Positions 1 to 38,775 of a stretch of DNA of 38,792 nt are shown piece after piece. Under the pieces are notes generated by a model. The model was not told where the DNA came from, did no database searches, and was given only the letters and a program-made list of their open reading frames with translations. The translations under genes were made by a program, and so were the position numbers. The DNA comes from an uncultured Atribacterota bacterium (GTDB lineage: Bacteria > Atribacterota > Atribacteria > Atribacterales > Atribacteraceae), in assembly GCA_964434845.1 (NCBI GenBank), contig CAYSWT010000006.1:1-38792 (forward strand), given 5' to 3'. How positions within the stretch are numbered: position 1 is the first letter of the stretch; every line of letters begins with the position of its first letter.

Positions 1-97
1 CTTTACAACTCAACACCTCAACCTCTCAACAACTCAACATTTTGGTGTTTTCATCCTCATATGGTGCCACAACGTGGCATGGCGGTCTATTATCCAG
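1..97 (-). repeat. Copy 1 (truncated by the window edge, reverse orientation) of the intergenic structured repeat family. Tandem CTCAACnn octamers at 6..37, core complement ggcatggcggtctattatcc at 76..95.
   Basis: Reverse complement of 8..96 aligns almost base-for-base with 38566..38652 (GGATA.TAGACCgCCATGCC ACGTTGTGGC ACCATaTGAGgATGaAAACACCAAAATGTTGAG...). Lies just 3' of the nrdJ stop. Confidence 0.8.
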
Positions 98-14019: not shown

Positions 14020-14197
14020 TTCAAAATTTGTATAAAAGTATCACCTCAATGAGATTCTTGTCAAGGATAATGTGTTTAAAAAGAGGCAAGAACCAATAAT
14101 TTTTCCGTCAACTGAGGATCGACCAATAAACCCTCTCTTGTTTCCCCTGCTGATGAATTGACAGAGTATTCACACAGATTCATAATATGCAAATAAA

Positions 14198-14293
14198 TAG
14201 ACATTCATGCCCATGGTTATTGCTCCTTGAAAGTAGGTTGAGTTTTCATCTTTCAGATGGTGCCAAGGTGTTTTCCTGGCATGAATGTCTATA
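14198..14293 (-). repeat. Copy 2 of the structured repeat family (MITE-like, 15-bp perfect terminal inverted repeats ATAGACATTCATGCC / GGCATGAATGTCTAT)
   Basis: TIRs at 14198-14212 and 14279-14293. Core ACCATCTGAAAGATGAAAACTCAACC present in reverse orientation. Sits in the divergent livK / flavodoxin promoter region. Confidence 0.8.
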
Positions 14294-21308: not shown

Positions 21309-23468
21309 CTATTGATACTCTTTATACGTCCCCGGAATAATTTGGTCTTTCTGACATTCAAACTCTGCCCAGAGTCGACCGTCTTCATACCATTTTTTCC
21401 ACTTTCCATCTCTCTGATTGTCTCGGTAATATCCTTCTGATTCCTTATTTCCATTGCGGTAGTATTTCGTCCATAGGCCTTCTTTTTTATCGTTCTGATA
21501 GGTTCCCTTTTGACCGATAACACCGTTTTCATACCAGGATATCCAGGTTCCTACTTTTTTTCCATTTTGATATTCACCTTCGGTCTTTTTCTTGCCATTT
21601 TCAAACCAGGTGGTTTCAATGCCATTTTTCAACCAGGTGCCATCGAGACGAATGATATAGGTATATTGAATTTTGAGCTTTCCATTCGCATACTTTTCCC
21701 GGTAGGTCTGCACCGCCTGATCAGAAGAAACCGGGTTTATTTCAGGAGATGGCATGATGGATGTTTTGATTGTAACCATCATTTTTTGCATAGCAATCAT
21801 TTCCCCCGAACTTATATCAAAAACTTTAACGGTTAATTCAAATTTTCCCGGCTTGCTATATATGTGCTTCATTTCCCCTTCGCTGCTGTCGGTGACCTTC
21901 GATCCGTCTCCGAAATTCCACAGATATTTAATCGCTTTCACCGTATCCGGAAAATTTCCCAGTGACGCTTTAAAGATATATTCTTCTTCGGTTTTTCCAT
22001 TATCGAGCGCTGAAGGTTCAAGAGACAACGCTGGAGTCTCGATTGCCGGGGAAGAAGAGACCGTATCGGTTCCTAAAAGATTGAACATTCCGCTCATAAC
22101 CTCACCCTGAAGCAATCTTTCCTTGTTATCAAACAGTTGGAGTTGTTCGAGGTCGAGATCAGATTGGGTGATCCCTTTCGGTTCTTTCAAAACTTGAAAT
22201 TTGACTACAGCAATGGTGCCACTTTCTTTGGTTAACATTTGATGATTCGCCTGGATAATGGCTATGCTGACTCGGCCGGGTTCAAGAATTTTAGCGCTGG
22301 TGAGCCACTCGGCATTGATTTCACCATGGACTATGCCTAAATATTCCAGGAGATTGGGATCAAAGGAAAACACCATTTCCGCCCGTATCATTTTTTGGTA
22401 TCCGTTAAAATGGATTGGAATATCAATGATATCTTGAGGTTTACCCCCCACAAACGGCAGTGAGAACATCGACACCGGTAGTGGGACGATAGTTGTAAAG
22501 GAAAAAACCAGGGTTTCCATGAGAGGGTTGCCGGTTGAGTCTTTCAATGATCCAAGAGGAAGGACCACTTGATAAATCGTGTCCGGGTTGAGATCATTCT
22601 TCGGTTTGAGAGTCAATTCTTTATTCTGAATTCCTTTCTCAATTGCAATCAGTTTTTGATTGGCATCCTGTACTGTTATAAAATCGTAAGCATTCCCGGG
22701 ATAAATGGTTTCATTGAATTGTATGCGAATGGTCGTGTTCAGTGGTATTTCGATCGCTCCGGAACTGGGTTCGGTGGTCACTACCATAGGAGGTTCAGTA
22801 TCGACCGGTTCAAGGGAAGGCAGCGGAGTAAGGATTGGTAATTGATCGATGATTGGAGTCTGGAGGGGAACGATGAGGATATCAGACAGGGTTGGAATCA
22901 ACGTAGGGCTGGGAGATGGAAGCGCAGTGACCACTTGACCCATACCCGGCAGAGTTGGGGCAACCGGTTCGGTTTCCGGGAAAGATGGCAGGATATCAAT
23001 CGTTGTTGATGACAAAGGGATGGGGCTCTCCTGGGATTGGATGGAAGGTGTCAGTGAGGCTTTCACCAATATTGGTTCGCTCACTGCCACTTCCGGATAA
23101 GTGTCGTCATCACTCGGGAAAAGACGAAATTCGTAGAATCCAGGAACTTCAGGCATGAGAAAAGTCATATTCCCAGCAGGAGAACGGTTTAAATATTGAT
23201 AATCGATGTCTTTTTTATCAGCAATCTTTTGATCACCTCGGGGAGTATCGGCTGGAATCAAACCGATCCAGGCGTCTGAACTCCATTCTGGAGAAGCAAT
23301 ATAGGAAACGACGACTTCTTGACCAGGCGCAGTTTCAGAGGTCGATGCAGTAATCGTGTACGGCGCTGCAGCATGATTCTGGGCGTAAACGACACCAACA
23401 CTGAAAAGCATCCAGAGAATCAACCAGAATAAGAACCATTTAATACCACTGAGATGATATTTTCCCAT
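21309..23468 (-). CDS. Secreted multidomain surface protein (Ig-like domains, PKD domain, C-terminal MORN-variant/YwqK-like repeats)
   Basis: Signal peptide. PKD-like WNFGDGS…KPGKFELTVKVFD. Repeated GxW/Y…YxNGKK…G motifs at the C-terminus typical of MORN-variant repeats. Confidence 0.65.
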   Translation of the reverse strand: MGKYHLSGIKWFLFWLILWMLFSVGVVYAQNHAAAPYTITASTSETAPGQEVVVSYIASPEWSSDAWIGLIPADTPRGDQKIADKKDIDYQYLNRSPAGNMTFLMPEVPGFYEFRLFPSDDDTYPEVAVSEPILVKASLTPSIQSQESPIPLSSTTIDILPSFPETEPVAPTLPGMGQVVTALPSPSPTLIPTLSDILIVPLQTPIIDQLPILTPLPSLEPVDTEPPMVVTTEPSSGAIEIPLNTTIRIQFNETIYPGNAYDFITVQDANQKLIAIEKGIQNKELTLKPKNDLNPDTIYQVVLPLGSLKDSTGNPLMETLVFSFTTIVPLPVSMFSLPFVGGKPQDIIDIPIHFNGYQKMIRAEMVFSFDPNLLEYLGIVHGEINAEWLTSAKILEPGRVSIAIIQANHQMLTKESGTIAVVKFQVLKEPKGITQSDLDLEQLQLFDNKERLLQGEVMSGMFNLLGTDTVSSSPAIETPALSLEPSALDNGKTEEEYIFKASLGNFPDTVKAIKYLWNFGDGSKVTDSSEGEMKHIYSKPGKFELTVKVFDISSGEMIAMQKMMVTIKTSIMPSPEINPVSSDQAVQTYREKYANGKLKIQYTYIIRLDGTWLKNGIETTWFENGKKKTEGEYQNGKKVGTWISWYENGVIGQKGTYQNDKKEGLWTKYYRNGNKESEGYYRDNQRDGKWKKWYEDGRLWAEFECQKDQIIPGTYKEYQ

Positions 23469-23530
23469 CGTTTTTTTCCTTCCTTTTTAATATATATACC
23501 ATTTGGTAAACTGTGAACGGTTAATCTCAT

Positions 23531-23627
23531 CTTTTCATCCATTCCAACTCAACATCTCAACATTCTTACAATAAATATTTTTCATCCTCTGCTGGTGCAA
23601 GGGTATTCATCTGGCATGAATGTCTAT
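23531..23627 (-). repeat. Copy 3 of the structured repeat family (reverse orientation)
   Basis: GGCATGAATGTCTAT (23614-23627) is identical to an arm of copy 2. CTCAAC repeats at 23545-23562. GGATGAAAA complement at 23531-23540 and 23581-23590. Confidence 0.7.
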
Positions 23628-23727
23628 TTTCCATTTATTGCATACAAATATAATACCAATGAATAGATTGAGCAAACAGTATATAATACGATATGATGAG
23701 AAAAATAAATAAAGGAGGTGCAAAGGT

Positions 23728-24096
23728 GTGCCAAACTATATTGAGCCCGTTGAAGAACTCTCCAGTCACGATCGTGACATTCACCGAACTCTCAATAGTC
23801 TAAAAGAAGAGATTGATGCCGTTGAATGGTATCACCAACGAGCTGTGACCACCACCGACATCGATATGAAAGCCATTTTAGTACACAACTTAGAAGAAGA
23901 AATCGAACACGCTTGTATGCTTTTAGAATGGCTCCGTCGGAATATGCCCGGCTGGGATGAACGCTTAAAGATATATTTATTTACCGCCCAATCCATAACT
24001 GCTATTGAAGATCACGCTCCAACCGATTCATCAGAACCAAAAGAACGTTCTTTGGATGATTTGGGAATCGGGAATCTAAAAAATATTTCTCTCTAA
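23728..24096 (+). CDS. Encapsulated ferritin-like protein (EncFtn) cargo with C-terminal encapsulin targeting peptide
   Basis: GTG start with AAAGGAGG RBS. Close match to EncFtn: …AVEWYHQRA…ILVHNLEEEIEHACMLLEWLRRN…YLFT…ITAIE. C-terminal SLDDLGIGNLK matches the GSLxIGxLK cargo-loading peptide. Confidence 0.85.
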   Translation: MPNYIEPVEELSSHDRDIHRTLNSLKEEIDAVEWYHQRAVTTTDIDMKAILVHNLEEEIEHACMLLEWLRRNMPGWDERLKIYLFTAQSITAIEDHAPTDSSEPKERSLDDLGIGNLKNISL

Positions 24097-24163
24097 TACC
24101 AGCATAATCAAATGTCTATCCGTTTGTTGATCGATTCAGTGTTGAATCGGAAAGGGGGATTGT

Positions 24164-24967
24164 ATGAATATTTTAAAACGGGAGTTATCTCCGATAACCA
24201 ACCAAGCCTGGCAGGAGATTGATCGTCAGGCCAAAAGAATATTCCTCACTCAACTCACCGGACGGCGCTTTGTTGAAGTGATTGGACCAAAAGGGTGGGA
24301 TTTTGCCGCTGTGGGATTAGGGCGAATAAATGTTCCGGAAAACCAACGGGATGGAGACGTTCGTTTTGGAATCCATATGGTTCAACCATTAGTCGAAATT
24401 CGAACCTCTTTTCAACTTGATCTGTGGGAATTGGATAATATTACCCGGGGAGCAACCGATATCGATTTTACTCCTCTGATTGACGCTGCCAAACAAACAG
24501 CTCTATTCGAAGAAAAAGCCATTTATCATGGGTTCGAACCGGGAGATATCGATGGGCTTCTTCCGGTGCTTGAATATGAACCCCTTCCCTTCTCCCATGA
24601 CCCGGGGGAGTTTTTCGGTAGCGTGTTAGAAGCGGTTGCCGTTTTAAACGACGCCTCGGTTACCGGTCCTTATGCTTTGGTGATAAACCCACTTCTCTGG
24701 GCTGATCTAGCGGCAACAAAAAGTGGCTATCCATTAAAGAAACTCATCGAAAGCACGATCGAAGGTCAAATCATTCCGGCATCAGTACTGGAAGATGCAT
24801 TAATCGTGTCAACCCGGGGCGGCGATTTTGAATTGATACTCGGTCATGATCTATCGATCGGATACGAAAGCCATGACGATAAATACGTTAACCTTTATTT
24901 TACAGAATCCTTCACTTTTCGCATCCTCGATCCTTCAGTGTTTGTCCGTTTGAGTGTAAGTGATTAG
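24164..24967 (+). CDS. Family 1 encapsulin nanocompartment shell protein (linocin M18-like, HK97 fold)
   Basis: 267 aa. MNILKRELSPITNQAWQEIDRQAK…TQLTGRRFVEV.GPKGWDFAA…TSFQLDLWELDN…GPYALVINP…GGDFELILGHDLSIGYE is collinear with Thermotoga-type encapsulin. Confidence 0.9.
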   Translation: MNILKRELSPITNQAWQEIDRQAKRIFLTQLTGRRFVEVIGPKGWDFAAVGLGRINVPENQRDGDVRFGIHMVQPLVEIRTSFQLDLWELDNITRGATDIDFTPLIDAAKQTALFEEKAIYHGFEPGDIDGLLPVLEYEPLPFSHDPGEFFGSVLEAVAVLNDASVTGPYALVINPLLWADLAATKSGYPLKKLIESTIEGQIIPASVLEDALIVSTRGGDFELILGHDLSIGYESHDDKYVNLYFTESFTFRILDPSVFVRLSVSD

Positions 24968-24980
24968 GTCAACTGACAAT

Positions 24981-25021
24981 GATCTTCACCTTTCTGGTTT
25001 TGATCCAGAAGGGTGAAGATC
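24981..25021. terminator. Bidirectional intrinsic terminator between convergent encapsulin and dipeptidase genes
   Basis: 10-bp perfect stem gatcttcacc/ggtgaagatc with a structured loop, flanked by T-rich sequence on both strands. Confidence 0.65.
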
Positions 25022-25037
25022 ATTCATGGTTTTCCTC

Positions 25038-26120
25038 TCAGCGAATGGCGTCAAAAGTGAGGTTTAAAATCGGATATTTGTTCCAATCTTTATAATCAAA
25101 ATGCCACCATTCATCCTGGTAAACTTCGAATCCTTCGGCTTCCATAGCCTGACGAAGTATTTCTCGAAACCACCTTTCCCGGGTGGTTCCACCGGGGAAT
25201 GATACATACGAACGTTCGGAAAATTCATCGTAATCGCCACCAAAAAGGATCGGTTCTTTGGTATTCACTTCATACAATGCAACATCCACCGCACATCCTC
25301 GATTATGGCGAGATCCTTTTTGGGAGTCGGCGACAAAGTTTTTCATTTCAGGAGGTGTGGCATCCCAAAACATCTTGGTCACGTACCAGGGGCGATATGC
25401 ATCATGGATGATCAATCCATAACCTATCCGTCTTAATTTCGAATTGACTCGTACCAGAGCTTCGGCGGCTGGACGTTGCAAGAAAGCGCGGTGCTCAGCA
25501 TAGAGAGGCACTCCTATAAAATTATTGTCAGTAGCATAACGGATATCGAGCTGAATGGTAGTATCAAGCCGAATGACTTCTACCAGATCCGGTTCAAGAA
25601 AGGTCCCCTTTTCCACGGGCGGAGTCGCTTGAAGAGCTTCGGGAAGCAATTCGTTAATGGTCTTCAAGGGTTGAATCCGAAAGGTTTCCCCCTTTTCTGG
25701 CCCATAAAAATACCGTCTATATTGAATTTGACCCGCGTTGATTGATATACCAAAATTATCCTTATCTCGGGTAAAACGCATTTTTCTTGCGTTCAATCCA
25801 CTCATAGCGGGTAACAAAAAAGTATCCGACTCCGCTTCTTTCAGCGGAATAATCTCATAAATCACCTCATTGAATAGCACACTTTCTTTATGCTGTCCTT
25901 TATCCACGCAGGGAAACAGCATTTCCAGTCGCCCTTGATTTTCACGTATATAAAATCGGCTTTCATCCTGAAGAATATAAGCCCCGATCAACTTCGTCCA
26001 TTGTGGCGGTTCCGGCGGTGGCGGTTGGAGGTGTTGAGCAACACTGACTTGAAGAGAAAAGAGAACACTCAGAATACAAATGAAGAGAACAATCCGTTGT
26101 TTCAACCTCATGGTATGCAC
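25038..26120 (-). CDS. Secreted D-Ala-D-Ala dipeptidase (peptidase M15D, VanX/DdpX-like) with an unknown ~170-aa N-terminal domain
   Basis: Signal peptide. SRHNRGCAVDV and EWWHFDY zinc-ligand blocks typical of VanX-type dipeptidases. Confidence 0.75.
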   Translation of the reverse strand: MHTMRLKQRIVLFICILSVLFSLQVSVAQHLQPPPPEPPQWTKLIGAYILQDESRFYIRENQGRLEMLFPCVDKGQHKESVLFNEVIYEIIPLKEAESDTFLLPAMSGLNARKMRFTRDKDNFGISINAGQIQYRRYFYGPEKGETFRIQPLKTINELLPEALQATPPVEKGTFLEPDLVEVIRLDTTIQLDIRYATDNNFIGVPLYAEHRAFLQRPAAEALVRVNSKLRRIGYGLIIHDAYRPWYVTKMFWDATPPEMKNFVADSQKGSRHNRGCAVDVALYEVNTKEPILFGGDYDEFSERSYVSFPGGTTRERWFREILRQAMEAEGFEVYQDEWWHFDYKDWNKYPILNLTFDAIR

Positions 26121-26213
26121 CCTTTCAAGTTATTTTCTATGCTGCATTGGCATGTCATCATCACCCTTATTTTAAATCGAATTCCTGATATTGTGCGCAA
26201 CCTGGAATTTAAT

Positions 26214-27269
26214 TTAGAAAACAAACCCAGACGTTAAGTTTTTTCCCTGTACTTCTAAAACAACTTCGCTTTTTTGCTGGGGCTGCAATTCCAAAGTAAA
26301 AATGAGTCGATTCGACTCTATTCGATCCAATGATACCGAATGTGAGATCATTTCAAAACTTGGTTGAAGAGGTACAAAAACTTCGATTTTTTTAACTTCT
26401 GATCCCCGGTTGGCAACAATGTAAAGCTTTTTTTCCTGAGTATCATAAAGAACCACTTGGCCTTTATTATTGTAGACCTGGTTGATCTTATCCTGTTTCA
26501 GTATTTTTTCCTCGACGGTCAGATCGTTACTTTTCCCAATTTCCATTTCCAGATCGGGTGATGTGCCCGAAATGAAGTTTTCGCCTAAAAAAACCACACC
26601 TGAAGTGGATTTTTCAAAATATTCCGATTTGGCAGGAAAGAGGATATAGGTCGGAACGGCGAGTTTCCAGAAAAAATGGACATCAGTATCGCCATAATTG
26701 AATGAAGCGTAACGCGATACTTTCTCAGCGGTGATCACCTGAAATTCCTGAATTTTCAAGCGCTTCGTTTCATAGGGCTCAAGCTGGAGCGTGAATTCCT
26801 TTCCAGCAATCACAAAATTGGCATTGCGAATGACTTCTTGCCCCTGATTGGTAATATCGGCAAAGAGAAAACCTGATGGTGCAGCTTTCTCTTTTTCCCA
26901 GTAGTATTGGTAGAGATAATTCAAAGTGAGTGATGATAAAGGGTAAGTGAAATGAATTCGCCCTTCAGTCGGTGAATCGGCAAGAATGGTCACTGTACTC
27001 CCTCGATCTGAGGAAGGAGTTAAAATGCTATTCAAAACCCCACCTTCGACCTGAATAAATATTTCATCATCGCTTAAGGCGTTCGGTTTTTCCCAGGAAT
27101 AAACATTCTCTCCGGATTGGAGTTGAACCATCCAGGTTTCTCGAAGATAGAATTGGGAATCTCCGGCAAATATCAAAATTTCTTCCGGATTCTTTTCGAG
27201 AATCACTTCTTGGGCGGATGCCCATCTCCAGCAAAAAAAGATCAAGAATATCACCAGGAGTTTTTTCAT
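26214..27269 (-). CDS. Secreted hypothetical protein, DUF4139-like (paralog of the next gene)
   Basis: Start refined to MKKLLVIF (GGGAGGA 6 nt upstream). ATGA overlap with the upstream gene's stop. Signal peptide. Confidence 0.5.
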   Translation of the reverse strand: MKKLLVIFLIFFCWRWASAQEVILEKNPEEILIFAGDSQFYLRETWMVQLQSGENVYSWEKPNALSDDEIFIQVEGGVLNSILTPSSDRGSTVTILADSPTEGRIHFTYPLSSLTLNYLYQYYWEKEKAAPSGFLFADITNQGQEVIRNANFVIAGKEFTLQLEPYETKRLKIQEFQVITAEKVSRYASFNYGDTDVHFFWKLAVPTYILFPAKSEYFEKSTSGVVFLGENFISGTSPDLEMEIGKSNDLTVEEKILKQDKINQVYNNKGQVVLYDTQEKKLYIVANRGSEVKKIEVFVPLQPSFEMISHSVSLDRIESNRLIFTLELQPQQKSEVVLEVQGKNLTSGFVF

Positions 27270-28453
27270 GACCATTCCTCCCGAAATTCATAATTTAATA
27301 AAATAGTTTCCTTTTTCCCCGGGTTGATAGTCATTTTCAAGTGAGCTCGGCCATTTTCCCATTGCCACTGCTCTCCTCCTCCGGTTATTTTCGCCCCCGG
27401 GGGCAATAATTCGATGAAGTCTAATTGTTTATCGGTTTCTCCCCAGTTCTTAATATCAAACTGAATCACCTTCTCCGACCAAAATCCAGCTATATCCCGA
27501 TCTTCATTGAAGTCGACTTTCTTTCGAAGATAACCAGATTCGATTCGATCCACCTGCAGGGTACGAATTGATCCGATGGGAATTTCAAATTCTTCCTGGC
27601 TTCGCACGAGAGGGAATTCAAATGTCCCCACCACCGAATTTTCAGTTCCAAAGATGGTAATCAATCCCTGGGGGAGAGGATCACCCTCGCTTTTCATTTT
27701 CAATATCCGATTGATTGACCCTTCTTCAATGCGGATCAGTTCCTTCACTGGAAACTTTCGTAAACCGGGAAAGACCTGCAGGACGCTCGGACCAGGCAAG
27801 TCTATAACATAAGGTAAATGAAAAACTTGATATTCTGACACTCTTTCCATGATCATCGGTTTTACCTTTTCGACCGCTATTTGGGATTGAACCCGATCGG
27901 AAGCAAGTGGAGCTTCTTCGGTCATCATTCCTCCTTTGTCACCTTCGAAATGAAAAGTAGGCTTCCCTAATAACCAGCTTAAATGGAGATTTTTCCAGGT
28001 AAAATTATGTTGGTTCGAGAGAAAAACTGAGGGATAGAGGTAAAAAAGCTGTTCCTTTTCATCCCAAACCCCCTGATATCTTTCTCTCCAGTCAAAACCA
28101 CTCACGAAAAAGGATATAAGAAAGGGAAACGAACCCGCTTTTTGTGATTCGAGCACCATCAGGTATCCTGAGAAATCGGTGGTGCTGATGGTTTTTAATG
28201 AAGTCGATGGATCGAAAGGATGCAGGTAAAATCTCTCGCGAAGAAGATTCTGTCCGGATAGAAAGAAACGATTTTCCCCATGATTGAGAAGCAGCGCTAC
28301 CTTCTCTACTGCCCAGGCCCGGTCAATATTCTGATAAACCGTGAGCCACACCTCATCGGGCATTATGGTTTGGGAGAGGAGAGCCTGAACCGATCCCGAA
28401 TATCCCAGTGCAATCACCAGGATTATTCCGAAAAAAAGAACAATCCTTCTCAT
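27266..28453 (-). CDS. Secreted hypothetical protein, DUF4139-like
   Basis: Start refined to MRRIVLFF (AAGGAGGTGG 5 nt upstream). Signal peptide. C-terminal G.ITIFGTENSVVGTFEFPLV…IPIGSIRTLQVDRIE pattern. Confidence 0.5.
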   Translation of the reverse strand: MRRIVLFFGIILVIALGYSGSVQALLSQTIMPDEVWLTVYQNIDRAWAVEKVALLLNHGENRFFLSGQNLLRERFYLHPFDPSTSLKTISTTDFSGYLMVLESQKAGSFPFLISFFVSGFDWRERYQGVWDEKEQLFYLYPSVFLSNQHNFTWKNLHLSWLLGKPTFHFEGDKGGMMTEEAPLASDRVQSQIAVEKVKPMIMERVSEYQVFHLPYVIDLPGPSVLQVFPGLRKFPVKELIRIEEGSINRILKMKSEGDPLPQGLITIFGTENSVVGTFEFPLVRSQEEFEIPIGSIRTLQVDRIESGYLRKKVDFNEDRDIAGFWSEKVIQFDIKNWGETDKQLDFIELLPPGAKITGGGEQWQWENGRAHLKMTINPGKKETILLNYEFREEWS

Positions 28454-28509
28454 TTTTCCACCTCCTTGCTGAAACATTAATTCTCCACCATTAAGATGAT
28501 CCTCAATAT

Positions 28510-28585
28510 GGATCGACCGCCATGCTGCTTGGCAGCACCATGTGAGGAATGAAAATCAAATGAGCCACATGCCATGGCATGTGGC
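28510..28585 (+). repeat. Copy 4 of the structured repeat family, plus a 22-nt perfect palindrome
   Basis: GGATCGACCGCCATGC-TGCTTGGCAGC-ACCATGTGAGGAATGAAAATC, then GCCACATGCCATGGCATGTGGC (28564-28585). Confidence 0.75.
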
Positions 28586-29375: not shown

Positions 29376-30767
29376 TTAATTTACGACTTCGATCGAGCCG
29401 GTAATCATTCCCATCCAGCAGCTAAATTTAAATTTACCGGCTACCTGTGGGGTAAACTCCATTACACTGGTTTTTCCATGAGAAAGTCCGATTTGTTTTG
29501 GAAAAAAATCTTTAGCAATAATGGCATTGGTGCAGCCACTGGTTCCGACATCTGTGACTTCCCAACGGACCGGAATCCCCTTTTTGACTGTAAATGAATT
29601 GGGTATATATCCACGCGCCGATGCTTCCATTTTTATTAATTGCGTTCCTTCGATCATAGGTTCAACGGTCATGGCCAGATTCGCGTTCGATTTTCCCGAT
29701 ACAGCTGTGGGATTCAAAACAAGATCGTCCAAACTTGGCAGACCCATAACATTCAATTGTGAATTGACGTTAAATAAGACAAAAAATATTACCACCATAC
29801 CGGCTATTTTTAAAAAAGTGTTTGCGTAACGAGGCTTTTCCAAAAATCGGAGACTGGAAATGCCAATGCTCAACAGTGGGGGAAGAGTACCCAGAGCAAA
29901 ACAGAAGAGAAGCAGTGAACCCTGAAGAAAACTCCCGGAAAGGAGAGCCAAACCCTGGACGGTTATGGTAAAACCACAGGGAAGAAAAAAGGTCAGTGCT
30001 CCCATCACCAGCGGCATATAACGACCCCGGAAGCGACTTTCATCCACCAGATAACGTGTCATAAAACGGGGTAAGGTAACCCGGAAACCTTGTAAACGCT
30101 TTACTCCTAACATTTGAAGACCCAACATCGCCATGAGGACTGAAACCATGATGACCAAAATCGAGGAAAAACGCAATGAAAGTGAAAACTGCCTTCCTAT
30201 CAATCCCAGTACACCTCCGCCCCCGGCAAAGGCAAGTAATCGTCCAACATTAAAAAGAAAGTGGGGTTCCATTTTTTTGAGAGGAGTATCCCGGTGAGAG
30301 TACAAATCATTCCATTGTTTGGCGAGGGAAAGGACCAATCCCCCAACCAGCGCCGCGCAGCTGGATACGCCGGCTATGAGACCAAATAGAAAAAAAGTGA
30401 TCAGTGAGGATGTGGAATCAACCGAGACAAATTGAGTAAAGCCGGTTCTTTCGAGGAGGAGGAAAGCAACAATCACCATGATGGCAAAACCCAAAGTCAG
30501 TAACCGGTTTTTTTTCTCGTTCTCGAAAGACCGCTCGGAAAAACGATACCCATCATCCTGAAAGAGATTGTTTAGCTGTTCAAGGTCGGGGTAAGTGTCT
30601 TCACTTTTGAGCACAACCTTCCCATCCTTTACTGAAGCATCGGCATAAACGATTCCTTGGCATTGTAGTAATTTTTTCTCGATAAAAATTTCACAGGCCG
30701 GACAATGCATCCCCTGGACATAATACGCCTTTGACTTCGCTGAAAACGTGGGTTTTTTCACTGACAA
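29376..30767 (-). CDS. Fusion protein: N-terminal HMA metal-binding domain, polytopic Cys-containing membrane domain (DsbD_2/CcdA-like), C-terminal cupredoxin-like domain
   Basis: GMHCPAC HMA motif. About 6 TM helices with SSCAAL and LPCGF cysteines. C-terminal …PVRWEVTDVGTSGCTNAI…GKFKFSCWMGMITGSIEV resembles cupredoxin_1-type domains. Confidence 0.6.
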   Translation of the reverse strand: MSVKKPTFSAKSKAYYVQGMHCPACEIFIEKKLLQCQGIVYADASVKDGKVVLKSEDTYPDLEQLNNLFQDDGYRFSERSFENEKKNRLLTLGFAIMVIVAFLLLERTGFTQFVSVDSTSSLITFFLFGLIAGVSSCAALVGGLVLSLAKQWNDLYSHRDTPLKKMEPHFLFNVGRLLAFAGGGGVLGLIGRQFSLSLRFSSILVIMVSVLMAMLGLQMLGVKRLQGFRVTLPRFMTRYLVDESRFRGRYMPLVMGALTFFLPCGFTITVQGLALLSGSFLQGSLLLFCFALGTLPPLLSIGISSLRFLEKPRYANTFLKIAGMVVIFFVLFNVNSQLNVMGLPSLDDLVLNPTAVSGKSNANLAMTVEPMIEGTQLIKMEASARGYIPNSFTVKKGIPVRWEVTDVGTSGCTNAIIAKDFFPKQIGLSHGKTSVMEFTPQVAGKFKFSCWMGMITGSIEVVN

Positions 30768-30776
30768 ACCACCCCA

Positions 30777-31262
30777 TTATTGATCGGCTTTAAAAAAGAG
30801 CATGAGGTTTTCCAGATCGTTTTGAAAAAGAATGATCTTCCCGTCTCTGACTTCAAGCTGTTCGCTGATGGGCACCGGATTACAATTCCCTTTTCCAGTC
30901 GCAATTTTATTTAGCGGATAAGAATTGCCACAAACATTACAAATGATCAGATCCTTTTCTTGATGAAAACCTTCTTGGGCTGGATAACACAGTTGGCAGG
31001 CATTGGCTGCAGCCCGGAAATTCCCTTTTTGATCCTTCACTATAAAAAAATAGATTGTCAATCCCGAGTATAAAGTGGCATGAAAAAAATGTATTGTATC
31101 ATCTACAAAGATCTCTGTGGAAAGTGTAATTTCACCATTCATAATCGATACATTTTGCCCCTTCTGTCCAAGGAACAATTCGTCCGATTCCGCTGATACA
31201 AATGGAATCATGATCAATAGCACTACTAAAGTCCATCCTATATACCTGGTTGGGAGCTGCAC
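30777..31262 (-). CDS. Membrane-anchored protein with CxxC-x16-CxxC motif (DUF2318-like)
   Basis: Signal/anchor segment. ACQLCYPA…CNVCGNSY. Family assignment is tentative. Confidence 0.4.
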   Translation of the reverse strand: MQLPTRYIGWTLVVLLIMIPFVSAESDELFLGQKGQNVSIMNGEITLSTEIFVDDTIHFFHATLYSGLTIYFFIVKDQKGNFRAAANACQLCYPAQEGFHQEKDLIICNVCGNSYPLNKIATGKGNCNPVPISEQLEVRDGKIILFQNDLENLMLFFKADQ

Positions 31263-31438
31263 CGAATATTCCTCCTCTAATCCTTTTTGAATTTTTGACT
31301 CTCTTGGGTATTATACGTGAAAATAATTGTATAGTATACTGATATAGTAAGTATTTATTAACCTTCAGTTTATCTCCACTATTTCTGTTTTCTTGACTTA
31401 TTCTTTATATACTATTAATATTAGTATCATAGTAATCT
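31263..31438. promoter_or_regulatory. AT-rich divergent promoter region of the copper locus with candidate operator palindromes
   Basis: 8-bp palindrome AGTATACT (~31331-31338). ATACTA-n7-TAGTAT (~31411-31429) just upstream of the copA RBS. Confidence 0.3.
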
Positions 31439-34400
31439 TTGAAGGGTGGGATTCCGATGAAGAAAAAAATTATACTTCAAATAGATGGTATGACCTGTCC
31501 CAGTTGTGAAAAGATCGTCACTCAAACCCTCCAGGAGCTTCCGGGAACAGCTGAAATCACCATCAGTAAAGATGAAAGTCGAGGAATTTTAAAGATCGAT
31601 CCGGCTCAAGTATCTCTATCAAAAATCATTACTGCTATCGAGGAAGTCGGATATCATGCCCATCTCATAAACGAAACCGACCTGACCGAAGATTACCAAG
31701 GAAACCAAGCCCCTTCTCTACCGATTTGCCCTTTTGTTTCCGCCAAAGATGGAAAAAAGACCATGAAAAGTGAAACTGAATCAAACCAAAATCAGCGGGT
31801 CACATTTTCTCTCTCAGGTATGCATTGCGCTTCCTGTGCGGCTCTCATCGAGCGGTCACTCACCAAAACCCCGGGGGTGGTGCGGGCAACAGTGAACTTT
31901 GCCGCTGAGAAAGCAACCGTATTTTTTGACGGAGCGTCGACCAGCCCGGCAGAGCTCATCGAAGCCGTCCAAAAAGCAGGTTATAATGCCCAGGTTATCA
32001 CCTCTGCTGATCGGGAAAAAGAAAATCGCCGCAAGCAGGCAGACATCGCTGCCCAATGGCGAACCTTCCTTATCAGCCTCTTTTTGAGTCTTCCCATGAT
32101 GTACTTTATGCTCTTGGACTTCTTCAAATGGCTCCCTGGCGCCTATAGTTTTCCTCCCTATTTCGGAATTCTGTCTTTCATTTTGGCTACCCCGGTTCAA
32201 TTCGTCATCGGGTTTCGCTTCTACCAGGGAATGTGGTCAAGCTTACGGATGAAAACATTTAACATGGATAGCCTCATCGCCATCGGTACCACTGTTGCCT
32301 ACGGTTATAGCCTCATTCACTATATCAGCCATATACTGGCCAACAGCAGCGTATTAGGGTTATTTGGCCGTAAGGTCCCCGAGCTGTACTTTGAAACCTC
32401 GGCTTTTCTGATCACTTTTGTCATATTAGGAAAATACTTGGAAGCCCATGCCAAAGGGCGAACCTCGGATGCCATTCAGAAATTGTTAAAACTCAAGGCT
32501 AAAACTGCCCGGGTACGACGAAACGGTGCGATTATTGATATTCCGGTTGAAAAAGTCGAAAAAGGAGATATGATCATCGTCCGTCCCGGAGAGAAAATTC
32601 CGGTCGATGGTGAGATCATTACTGGAAACTCATCGGTCGATGAATCGATGATCACCGGGGAAAGCATCCCGGTAGAAAAGGGACCGGGCGATACTGTCAT
32701 CGGAGCTACTATGAATATTGTAGGAAGTTTCGAGTTTATTGCCACCCGGGTGGGATCGGAAACTATGCTCGCCCAGATCGTTCAGCTCATCGAGGACGCT
32801 CAGAGTTCCAAAGCACCAATTCAAGCTTTCGCCGATCGGATCGCTGCCTGGTTTGTACCCTCAGTGCTGGCCATTGCTGGTGGAACTTTCATCGTCTGGT
32901 ATTTTATCCTTGGCTCGACCCTCACCTATTCATTAATGGCTATGACGTCAGTTATCGTCATCGCTTGTCCCTGCGCACTCGGGTTGGCAACTCCAACCGC
33001 GATTATGGTCGGTACCGGTAAGGGGGCTGAACACGGTATCCTGGTTAAAGGAGGAGAACCACTGGAAGCAGCCCGCACTATCAACACTGTCGTCTTCGAT
33101 AAAACTGGAACAGTGACCAACGGGAAACCGGTGGTGACCGATGTTGTCTCGTTTGGAAATCTCTCATCGGATATGATATTACAGATTGCCGGAAGTCTGG
33201 AAAAGTTATCCGAACACCCCCTCGCTCAATCTATCTATCAAAATGCTCAAGAAAAAAATCTATCTTTAAACGAGGTAGATCATTTCCATGCCCTCCCGGG
33301 ACGGGGAGTCGAAGGCAAAATCAATGGCCAGCATTATACGATTGGTAACCGAAAGCTTTTATCTGAACACCAACTTCCGGTTTCTGAATTCGTCGAACAA
33401 AACATCTCCAACTTAGAAGAACAGGGGAAAACAGTAATGATTCTTGCTGACCCCAATTCACTTCTCGGAGCAGTTGCCGTTGCCGACACTCCCAAGGAAA
33501 CATCCAAAAAAGCAATTGATCAATTAAAAAAGCTGGGTATGACCTTGTTTATGATAACCGGCGACAATCAGCGTACTGCCCGTGCTGTCGCCCGCGAAGT
33601 CGGTATTTCAGAGGTCCTGGCTGAAGTACTCCCCGAAGAGAAGTCGAAGGAAATAAAAAAACTCCAACAAAGCGGGAAAAAAGTTGCTATGGTTGGTGAC
33701 GGCATCAACGATGCACCGGCGATCGCTCAAGCCGATCTTGGAATCGCCATGGGATCGGGAACCGACGTGGCCATGGAAACTGGAGACATCATTCTGGTTA
33801 AAAACAACCTCGGTGACGTAGCAACCGCGTTGGAACTCTCTCGAGAAACCATGGGGAAAATAAAACAAAATCTCTTTTTTGCGCTTTTTTATAACTTGAT
33901 CGGTATTCCCATTGCCGCCCGAGCCTTTGCTACTTTCGGACTGCTGCTCAACCCCGAATTAGCCGGTCTGGCCATGGCTTTGAGCTCAATTTCGGTGGTT
34001 TCCAATTCTCTCCTGCTGCGCACTTTTCGTCCCCGTCGAAAAAACTATCTCTCCATGGCAGCTCCTCTCATCATGATCCTTTTGTTTACCTGGATGTTCG
34101 TCGGTTTTGCCCGCTTCAGTTCCATTATGGGGACGGTGATGACACAGCTTCCTCCAGAGATAAATCAGGCGTTTGAAAAATTCCTGAACAACGGACAGGC
34201 GATGGTGACTTTTTCATCTACCGGAATACCAAAACTATTCTTTACCTCCGATTCGTTGAAAAGCCCAATGCTATTGGTTCAAAAGGGCTTATTTCCACCC
34301 GAAAAAGATGAAATGCTTCTTGGAGCTTCCGAAGCTACCATGATGATTCAGGAAAAACTGTTTCAAAACCCGGGTGACTCTATTCCAAATTTTTTTGGCA

Positions 34401-34825
34401 TTCCCTTGATGAGAGTGGTTGGCATCTTGAAACCGACTGGGACTATTCTGGATATGTTTCACTTTATCACTCCGGAAACATCCAAGAGCATTTCCGGATC
34501 GTCTAAGTTGACCATCGGTTTCGCCAAAGGAACTCCAAAATTGTTCTATACCCTTGAAAAGAACACCATTCCCGCCTTGCTCCAACCTTTTATCTCAAAG
34601 GATGCGCTCCAATCGGTAATTCTAAATGGGAAAACCCATCTTCCACTCATACTTGGATACAATGAGGGTCAGATGATGATTTCTGAAAAGCTTTTAAAAA
34701 ACGCTGGAGATATCCTTCCTGACTTCTTTGGTCAAGACGTGGTTGTTGCCAAAATTCTTCCCAAAACCAACACTTTGTTCGATGAATTTCATTTTGTAAC
34801 CAAGGAGTTTGTGGTGAAAAAATAA
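31439..34825 (+). CDS. copA: Cu(I)-translocating P1B-type ATPase (CopA-like) with two N-terminal HMA domains, an extra C-terminal TM helix and a novel tandem-duplicated ~110-aa C-terminal domain
   Basis: GMTCPSCE and GMHCASCA motifs. CPC ([12 protein letters not shown]). [13 protein letters not shown]. After the canonical end (…[12 protein letters not shown]) an additional helix [21 protein letters not shown]. Then two homologous units (…GIPKLFFT…[20 protein letters not shown]…DMFHFITPE and …GTPKLFYT…[20 protein letters not shown]…DEFHFVTKE). Confidence 0.85.
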
Positions 34826-36304: not shown

Positions 36305-36844
36305 TTATTCAATAAACACCGCTGAATACCAATTTTGTGGTTCGTCTTCGTTTTTCAAGGTTTCGAGCGGGAGACCGAATTTTCTGACGGTTTTATAAAC
36401 ATCTATGCCTACACTATGGAACGCCGGACGGGCTTGTTTGGGATTGACACATTCCTTACCTTTGAACCCAGCACACTCCTTACAGAGAGCGCAATCACTT
36501 AATGAAAAAGCAAAATAATAGCCATCCAGGAATGCCTGCCGCTCAATAGCAAAGGAAATTTTTTGAGATTGTACTTTATCGGTGGAATGAATAATAATTC
36601 CCCAGGAATATTGTCTAAAAATTTTTTTATATTCCCAGGGTTTCAGTGACCCCGACCGTGAGGGACAGGTGTTCCCTTTCCCCCAATCGTTACATCCAAA
36701 CATGCATTTCAAAATGGTGCGTGGATCAAATTTGATATCTTTCACCTGGAAGAGGACAGCGTGATCAGCGCCCATATTCAATGCTAAATCGAGATAGGTT
36801 TTATTAAAATTATTTATCAAAGAATTTTCCATTGTGTATTTCAA
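36305..36844 (-). CDS. DUF2284-family predicted metal-binding protein
   Basis: CMFGCNDWGKGNTCP and CALCKECAG cysteine clusters characteristic of the family. 179 aa. Confidence 0.55.
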   Translation of the reverse strand: MKYTMENSLINNFNKTYLDLALNMGADHAVLFQVKDIKFDPRTILKCMFGCNDWGKGNTCPSRSGSLKPWEYKKIFRQYSWGIIIHSTDKVQSQKISFAIERQAFLDGYYFAFSLSDCALCKECAGFKGKECVNPKQARPAFHSVGIDVYKTVRKFGLPLETLKNEDEPQNWYSAVFIE

Positions 36845-38323: not shown

Positions 38324-38563
38324 CCATTTCCTAATCTATAGTAAAAACACATCCGATAGCATAAACATCATTCAATTTTTAGTGATCAGATGTTTTTTGT
38401 CAACCTCGGTTCAAATGTTTTATTGAAAGAAAAATTCCCAACCAGAGCATTCCATGTGAATTATTTCTTGTAACAAAAGCATAAAAATTCATATTGGATG
38501 GAAAAAGAATGTGGAAGGTTGCTAAATAGTAAACTTTTTACATTTTACTTTTCACTGTATTTT

Positions 38564-38652
38564 CAGGATAGACCCTCATGCCACGTTGTGACACCATGTG
38601 AGTATGGAAACACCAAAATGTTGAGGTGTTGAGAGGTTGAGGTGTTGAGTTG
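38564..38652 (+). repeat. Copy 5 of the structured repeat family, with four tandem GTTGAGnn octamers (38620-38651)
   Basis: caGGATAGACCCTCATGCC-ACGTTGTGAC-ACCATGTGAGTATGGAAACACCAAAATGTTGAGGTGTTGAGAGGTTGAGGTGTTGAGTTGG. Near-identical to copy 1 (reverse complement) at the other end of the window. Confidence 0.85.
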
Positions 38653-38712
38653 GAAAAAAGCTAATGGAGAAAATTTTTTTACGACTCACTCCTCATGACT
38701 CACGGAATTTCC

Positions 38713-38775
38713 AGGATAGACCCTCATGCCGCATAGCGGCACTAGATGAGAATGAAAACTTTGAGGGTCTATCCT
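38713..38775 (+). repeat. Copy 6 of the structured repeat family: compact 63-bp version with 14-bp perfect terminal inverted repeats AGGATAGACCCTCA / TGAGGGTCTATCCT
   Basis: aGGATAGACCCTCATGCC-GCATAGCGGC-ACTAGATGAGAATGAAAACTT-TGAGGGTCTATCCt. Confidence 0.85.

Follow-up and report, generated by a model that had tools for sequence, protein, structure and literature searches.

The stretch of DNA analysed here, 38,792 nt of contig CAYSWT010000006.1 from an uncultured Atribacterota bacterium (the window), very probably carries two genes that form an operon for an iron nanocompartment of the family 1 encapsulin type. The first gene, at positions 23728 to 24096 of the plus strand, starts with GTG and encodes EncFtn, an encapsulated ferritin-like cargo protein of 122 amino acids (aa). 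The second, at 24164 to 24967, lies 67 nt further on along the same strand, starts with ATG and encodes a family 1 encapsulin shell protein of 267 aa with an HK97-type fold. The original prediction had named this known type of system, with the cargo gene directly upstream of the 267-aa shell gene, and both open reading frames (ORFs) are present on the plus strand as it had described. It had also proposed profile searches as its own test, and in these searches both proteins pass the curated cut-offs for EncFtn and for family 1 encapsulins. We found no evidence that contradicts the assignment.

For the cargo, the listed ORF is identified by profiles and by solved structures. It matches the EncFtn-like family of Pfam, PF22277, with an E-value of 4.5e-37 (126.1 bits, cut-off 27), and the 'encapsulin-associated ferritin-like protein' model TIGR04535 (ferrit_encaps) with 141.8 bits, above the curated cut-off of 125. 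The latter alignment places residues 4-118 on model positions 1-114 of 114, and thus includes the C-terminal end. An EncB-type identity was ruled out, the protein scoring 57 bits against the EncB family model NF058679, which has a cut-off of 90. The best match in the PDB is 3k6c (NE0167; E = 4.9e-26). The EncFtn of Rhodospirillum rubrum (33bf and 5da5) matches at about 1e-25 to 1e-23 (3.5e-23 for 5da5), that of Haliangium ochraceum (7oe2) at 9.4e-24, and 5n5f, deposited as 'encapsulated ferritin', at 8.5e-22.

The residues that bind metal in characterised EncFtn proteins can be followed into the window protein. In R. rubrum, the ferroxidase centre consists of Glu32, Glu62 and His65 together with Tyr39, drawn from two chains, and a secondary (entry) metal site is formed by Glu31/Glu34 (He et al. 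2016, PMC5012862). We took the residue roles from that study and mapped the numbering by HMMER alignment to 33bf and 5da5 plus direct indexing. The four ferroxidase ligands, in the order given, correspond to E28, E58, H61 and Y35, while the R. rubrum tryptophan W38 is also conserved, as W34. The entry-site residues correspond to E27/D30, which retains the acidic character of the site. Judged by this alignment, the ferroxidase-centre ligand set is complete and the entry site has a single conservative Glu-to-Asp change, so the EncFtn metal-ligand blocks claimed earlier are indeed there.

Comparison with orthologous loci adds support for both genes. We used loci from two metagenome-assembled genomes (MAGs), JAAYUP010000126.1 of Candidatus Atribacter alterifermentans (L007/L009) and DNGA01000302.1 of Candidatus Atribacteria (L008). 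The GTG start of EncFtn is supported because the orthologues begin at the same codon position, with ATG in L007 and TTG in L008, behind the same invariant AAGGAGGTG. Among the three EncFtn orthologues, the proportion of nonsynonymous differences (pN) is 0.15-0.18, compared with a proportion of synonymous differences (pS) of 0.76-0.80. For the shell gene, the ratio of nonsynonymous to synonymous substitution rates (dN/dS) is 0.07-0.12, indicating strong purifying selection. Both genes are therefore under purifying selection.

The shell assignment rests on full-length matches to profiles and structures. Against NF041155 (encap_f1), the NCBIfam equivalog for the 'family 1 encapsulin nanocompartment shell protein', the 267-aa protein scores 278.9 bits (cut-off 100), with residues 4-263 on model positions 1-261 of 261. 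Against PF04454 (Linocin_M18), the E-value is 1.2e-85 (287.2 bits, cut-off 24.3) over model positions 1-253 of 253, and no further Pfam domain was found in the protein. Residues 1-263 align with the Thermotoga maritima shells 3dkt and 7k5w at E-values near 1e-67, with small indels only, and the H. ochraceum shell 7odw matches at 1.4e-63. By these alignments the protein has an HK97-type fold without the features of family 2, namely an N-terminal extension and an insertion binding cyclic nucleotide monophosphates. Because solved structures match full-length at 1e-26 for EncFtn and 1e-67 for the shell, we take the folds of both proteins as settled. Shells built with T=3 or T=4 symmetry match far more weakly, Myxococcus xanthus EncA (4pt2) at 2e-8 and 6nj8 at 5e-14, so that in the PDB comparison the T=1 matches are stronger by at least 50 orders of magnitude. 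Since T=1 shells are by far the closest solved relatives, we infer that a T=1 particle of 60 subunits, about 24 nm across, is the best estimate for the window shell.

One residue of the shell deserves separate mention. The tryptophan W88, in the motif LDLWELDN, aligns with Trp87 of the T. maritima shell, which stacks on a bound flavin (PMC8086157). A second study calls the flavin-stacking tryptophan W90, and found it only in encapsulins with ferritin-like cargo (PMC8610991). We infer that this is the same residue as Trp87 under another numbering, because the chain has no tryptophan at position 90. Tryptophan occupies the W88 column in 113 of the 120 nearest shell homologues, and is thus near-universal in the anaerobe-rich clade to which the window shell belongs. 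By analogy with Trp87 of T. maritima, the window shell probably binds flavin at W88.

The link between cargo and shell is the cargo-loading peptide (CLP) at the C-terminal end of EncFtn. The protein ends in ...ERSLDDLGIGNLKNISL (also written ...PKERSLDDLGIGNLKNISL), and the peptide SLDDLGIGNLK therefore spans residues 108-118 (positions 24049 to 24081, plus strand), with four residues, NISL, beyond it; the original prediction had recognised the same peptide. Its DLGIGNLK portion aligns with SLGIGSLR, the H. ochraceum localisation sequence that was resolved bound to the shell in 7oe2. The linker that precedes the peptide (residues ~92-107) is poorly conserved: among the window, L007 and L008, DLGIGNLK is identical, while the linker varies in both sequence and length. 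In other words, of the C-terminal tail only the targeting peptide is conserved in the three orthologues. We also scanned the C-termini of every stop-to-stop ORF in the window from 60 aa upwards for CLP-like sequence, and EncFtn was the only credible match. Two other matches to the CLP regular expression were dismissed as short, non-genic ORFs.

For gene pairing we turned to 80 genome loci with a gene for a relative of the shell (45-79% identity). They span many phyla, most come from MAGs of anoxic habitats, and we searched their flanks with an EncFtn hidden Markov model built in this analysis. Directly before the shell gene and in the same orientation, 76 of the 80 loci have an EncFtn ORF; of the four that do not, two lack upstream sequence. 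An LGI-type terminal motif is present in 63 of 74 strong EncFtn ORFs from related loci; the modal tail forms are DSLGIGKIK and [GS]DLGIGSLK, and the motif across the family is [DS]LGIG[KSN][IL]K. Because the pairing and the tail motif recur across related loci, the window pair is a typical member of a large, coherent clade. The nearest shell relatives, at 79-81% identity, are labelled Candidatus Atribacteria and share the gene order; in GTDB, Candidatus Atribacter alterifermentans (79%) is the nearest species representative. Other metagenome contigs also encode a shell protein identical to that of the window.

These data bear on which cargo the shell carries. Family 1 encapsulins are known to have secondary cargo encoded away from the shell gene, and the stretch examined is only 38.8 kb of the genome. 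Both facts would favour an explanation in which the main cargo is encoded elsewhere, as a DyP peroxidase, a rubrerythrin-like protein or another CLP-bearing protein, and EncFtn is a minor or secondary cargo. We consider this improbable, given that no ORF in the window other than EncFtn has a CLP-type C-terminus, that EncFtn stands directly upstream of the shell gene as it does in nearly all of the related loci, and that the shell clade keeps the tryptophan confined to encapsulins with ferritin-like cargo (PMC8610991).

Conservation of the targeting peptide also contradicts the explanation that the two genes are intact but independent, with EncFtn acting as a free ferroxidase of the CLP-less NE0167 type and the shell remaining empty or being secreted as a 'bacteriocin/linocin'. 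The window EncFtn has the full linker and the peptide, and the peptide is conserved despite the divergence of the linker. What speaks for independence is that relatives are still annotated as 'bacteriocin family protein' and that the best PDB match of the cargo, 3k6c, is a 95-residue chain without a tail. The word 'bacteriocin', however, is a historical label of PF04454 and not a tested function. Furthermore, isolated EncFtn does not store iron (PMC5012862). Taken together, we regard independent function as very improbable.

Least credible of all is a prophage origin, in which the 267-aa gene would be an HK97-fold major capsid protein, as a remnant or component of a phage, and the small upstream gene would be unrelated: encapsulins do share the HK97 fold, and a few shell homologues also have a precomputed match to PF05065 (phage capsid), but we reject this reading because the equivalog score is far above its cut-off with a Pfam match to Linocin_M18 alone, the gene upstream encodes a genuine EncFtn that carries a targeting peptide, the two genes stay paired in many phyla, and around them lie genes for a Big_5/cohesin/PKD surface protein, a Peptidase_M15 dipeptidase and several proteins of unknown function, with no terminase, portal, protease or tail genes among them.

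Some points limit how far the assignment of a working iron nanocompartment can be taken. The entry-site position D30 is Asp and not Glu. The shell is only ~45-48% identical to the nearest solved shells, as estimated by eye from the alignment, and a sequence does not fix the T number with certainty. Homology is the basis for predicting co-transcription, assembly of the shell, its T number, ferroxidase activity, the loading of iron and the binding of flavin. Finally, a search of the upstream region (23469 to 23727) for Fur boxes (19-mer and 7-1-7) and PerR boxes gave best hits of only 10-11 matches, and 51 to 366 other positions in the window score equally well. Because no Fur- or PerR-type operator is recognisable upstream, iron- or peroxide-dependent regulation is without support.

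On the model of the characterised family members from R. rubrum, H. ochraceum and T. maritima, the operon would work as follows. The EncFtn and shell genes would be co-transcribed from a promoter near 23650-23690. EncFtn would form a metal-dependent annular decamer with di-iron ferroxidase centres at its dimer interfaces, and its C-terminal peptide would dock in a pocket that the shell protein forms on its inner face. Around this cargo, 60 shell subunits would close into a T=1 icosahedron of ~24 nm. Fe(II) entering through the shell pores would be oxidised by EncFtn and deposited as ferric mineral in the lumen. The physiological role is likely to be iron storage and detoxification in an anaerobic host, with protection against oxidative stress or oxidant exposure.

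Atribacterota are strict anaerobes known for other unusual compartments. A speculative proposal, which we think rather unlikely, is that anaerobes use flavin bound to the shell, and not O2, as the physiological acceptor or donor of electrons when iron is deposited or released. If it were true, this clade of encapsulins would constitute an O2-independent, redox-gated iron store.

The signals expected of an operon are present around the two genes. Each has a purine-rich ribosome-binding site, where strong ones had been predicted: AAAGGAGGTG at 23711 to 23720 (plus strand), 8 nt before the GTG of EncFtn and containing the AAGGAGGTG that is invariant in the three orthologous loci, and AAAGGGGGA at 24151 to 24159 (plus strand), 4-5 nt before the ATG of the shell gene. 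The latter lies in the 67-nt spacer between cargo and shell (24097 to 24163, plus strand). A terminator scan found no terminator-like site in this spacer, and its fold is no better than that of shuffled sequences (z = 0.17); we therefore claim no attenuator or stoichiometry-setting hairpin.

Downstream, a terminator hairpin at 24978 to 25024 (plus strand), found by folding and by the scan, begins 10 nt past the shell stop codon, between the convergent shell and Peptidase_M15 genes. It has a perfect 20-bp stem and a 7-nt loop, with a folding energy of -38.2 kcal/mol (z = -6.66), and none of 200 shuffles folds as well. The original prediction of a strong bidirectional terminator holds in part. 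The hairpin is strong and lies between convergent genes, but the T-run after the stem is found on the plus strand only (CATGGTTTTC), and the scan reports a terminator on that strand only. Bidirectional termination is thus plausible by position, and canonical on one strand only.

Upstream, the alignment of the spacers from the window, L007 and L008 contains invariant runs that make up a promoter-like block, TAT-ATACCAAT-AAT ... AGTATATAATA, at 23647 to 23690 (plus strand). A -10-like TATAAT occurs inside it at 23682-23687, and a consensus scan gives a weaker alternative promoter, TTGAGC-18-TATGAT, at 23668-23697. Because the block is invariant although synonymous sites are near saturation among the three orthologous genomes (pS 0.69-0.80), it is the best candidate for the core promoter of the operon or for an operator. 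Scanned against Rfam at gathering thresholds, the whole window returned no family, and hence no known riboswitch or small RNA near the operon, and no tRNA genes were found in it.

The same region varies among close relatives of the window strain. Conspecific strains (loci L001-L005 and L089-L092) differ from the window at only 4 of the 259 positions of the upstream spacer, 23645, 23665, 23672 and 23673, all of which fall in the promoter-like block when it is delimited as 23645-23689. Five metagenome contigs with an identical shell gene start at 23681 or 23689, which points to micro-heterogeneity between strains in the promoter region as the reason why the metagenome assemblies break there.

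A copy of a dispersed intergenic repeat lies further upstream, on the minus strand between the divergent genes (23542 to 23630; core ATAGACATTCATGCC at 23613-23627). It had been placed in the promoter region of the operon in the original prediction; the copy is indeed upstream of the operon, but it sits upstream of the conserved core promoter block and outside it. The spacer is 259 nt long in the window, compared with 165-166 nt in L007 and L008, a difference of ~94 nt. The repeat is absent from the orthologous L007 and L008 spacers and from the Candidatus Atribacter alterifermentans loci compared, and is present in the conspecific strains L089-L092. Because the extra DNA of the window spacer includes the 23542-23630 copy, the spacer alignment identifies the copy as an insertion specific to this lineage, situated ahead of the conserved promoter block. 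It is context, and no part of the encapsulin system.

Other copies of the repeat are found in the window at 2-90 (minus), 14197-14211 (plus), 14253-14292 (minus), 28510-28554 (plus), 38552-38656 (plus) and 38700-38770 (plus). The core, (GG)ATAGAC-NNN-CATGCC, has 6 matches in the window where 0.09 would be expected. It is followed by a short hairpin and then by CACCAT-TGAG-ATGAAAAC, often with runs of the octamer GTTGAG(G/T)T after it. The hairpin stems vary between copies in a compensatory way (GCCAC/GTGGC, GCTGC/GCAGC and GCCGC/GCGGC), and the orientation of the copies relative to neighbouring genes is not constant. In the copy at 38708-38775, the outer arms GGATAGACCCTCA and TGAGGGTCTATCC pair, giving -32.4 kcal/mol (z = -6.1). 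This is the only strongly stable copy, the others folding near the mean of their shuffles, and we do not claim a structured RNA; the repeat has no Rfam match. It looks like an element of the repetitive extragenic palindrome (REP) or miniature inverted-repeat transposable element (MITE) type, and a function as a protein-binding site or small RNA is possible. The sequence AAATGTCTATCC at 24113-24124, in the cargo-shell spacer, matches the terminal ~11 nt of the repeat (GGATAGACATT on the other strand); this may be chance, or it may be a repeat remnant or a binding site.

The neighbours of the operon are conserved. L007 and L008 have the gene order Big_5/cohesin/PKD protein (minus), EncFtn (plus), shell (plus), Peptidase_M15 (minus), a 353-aa protein (minus) and a ~394-aa protein (minus), and the order in the window is the same. 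The divergent neighbour at 21309-23468 (minus) encodes a 719-aa secreted or surface protein with Big_5, cohesin, PKD and MORN-variant repeats, and occupies the same position in L007 and L008. The three genes at 25038-28477 (minus) encode the Peptidase_M15 protein, a 353-aa protein and a 403-aa protein, of which the last two have no Pfam match. They are conserved beside the operon in all Atribacter-like loci, with no evident link to the encapsulin. The Peptidase_M15 protein is a VanX-like D-Ala-D-Ala dipeptidase with an N-terminal extension of ~175 aa and a signal-like start. A relaxed Pfam search found nothing significant for the conserved neighbours of 353 aa, 403 aa and 176 aa, or for the C-terminal 329 aa of the ATPase described next.

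Several genes related to metal handling lie 4-10 kb downstream of the operon, at 29376-34825 and 36305-36844. They encode a membrane protein with HMA, DsbD_2 and cupredoxin-like domains (29376-30767, minus), an FtrD-like protein (30777-31262, minus), an unusually long P1B-type ATPase of 1128 aa with two HMA domains and a C-terminal extension of ~330 aa without a Pfam match (31439-34825, plus), and a DUF2284 'predicted metal-binding protein' (36305-36844, minus). A P-type ATPase is also near the encapsulin operon in L007. The surroundings of the operon may be a metal-homeostasis neighbourhood.

As an EncFtn-encapsulin system the locus is of the textbook kind, and what it adds is at most a record for a new lineage. 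Relatives of the pair have already been annotated automatically as EncFtn-encapsulin systems. Our search for encapsulin together with Atribacter*, within the collection of papers at hand, returned none; the operon would be the first encapsulin system to be recorded for Atribacterota. It adds one confidently assigned EncFtn-encapsulin iron nanocompartment for an uncultured, anaerobic, Atribacterota-like lineage, in which the pairing of cargo and shell, the targeting peptide and the flavin-site tryptophan are all conserved. Its use lies in annotation, and in the choice of candidates for studying iron oxidation and storage inside the encapsulins of anaerobes. Existing knowledge of the EncFtn-encapsulin system is left unchanged.

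Among known systems, the T. maritima encapsulin (Maritimacin; 3DKT, 7K5W and 7KQ5) provides the best solved match to the shell, over residues 1-263 with three small indels. As in the window, its cargo is ferritin-like, is encoded beside the shell gene and has a C-terminal targeting peptide; the host is anaerobic, and the tryptophan (Trp87 there, W88 here) is in the same LDLWELDN motif. The two differ in host phylum and in the shell sequence itself, at the ~45-48% identity read from the alignment.

The H. ochraceum encapsulin:EncFtn pair (7ODW, 7OE2 and 7OEU) likewise consists of two genes, for EncFtn and for a shell with T=1, and matches the window in both shell (1.4e-63) and cargo (9.4e-24), the latter alignment running through the localisation sequence. 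Unlike it, the window cargo has a shorter linker and the residues NISL beyond the peptide, and the H. ochraceum host is an aerobic myxobacterium. With R. rubrum EncFtn (Rru_A0973, 5DA5) and its encapsulin, the window shares all of E32, E62, H65, Y39 and W38; the R. rubrum cargo matches at 3.5e-23 and the shell (9ry4) at 7e-56. E34 there is D30 here, and the R. rubrum shell, at 280 aa, is longer as well as more distant.

The closest counterparts are the orthologous Candidatus Atribacter alterifermentans (L007/L009) and Candidatus Atribacteria (L008) loci. They lack the upstream repeat insertion, their EncFtn proteins have shorter linkers (114-117 aa in total), and the sequence downstream of the shell gene differs from that of the window. 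Their shells are 79-80% identical to that of the window, and they have the same gene order, ribosome-binding site and promoter-like block.

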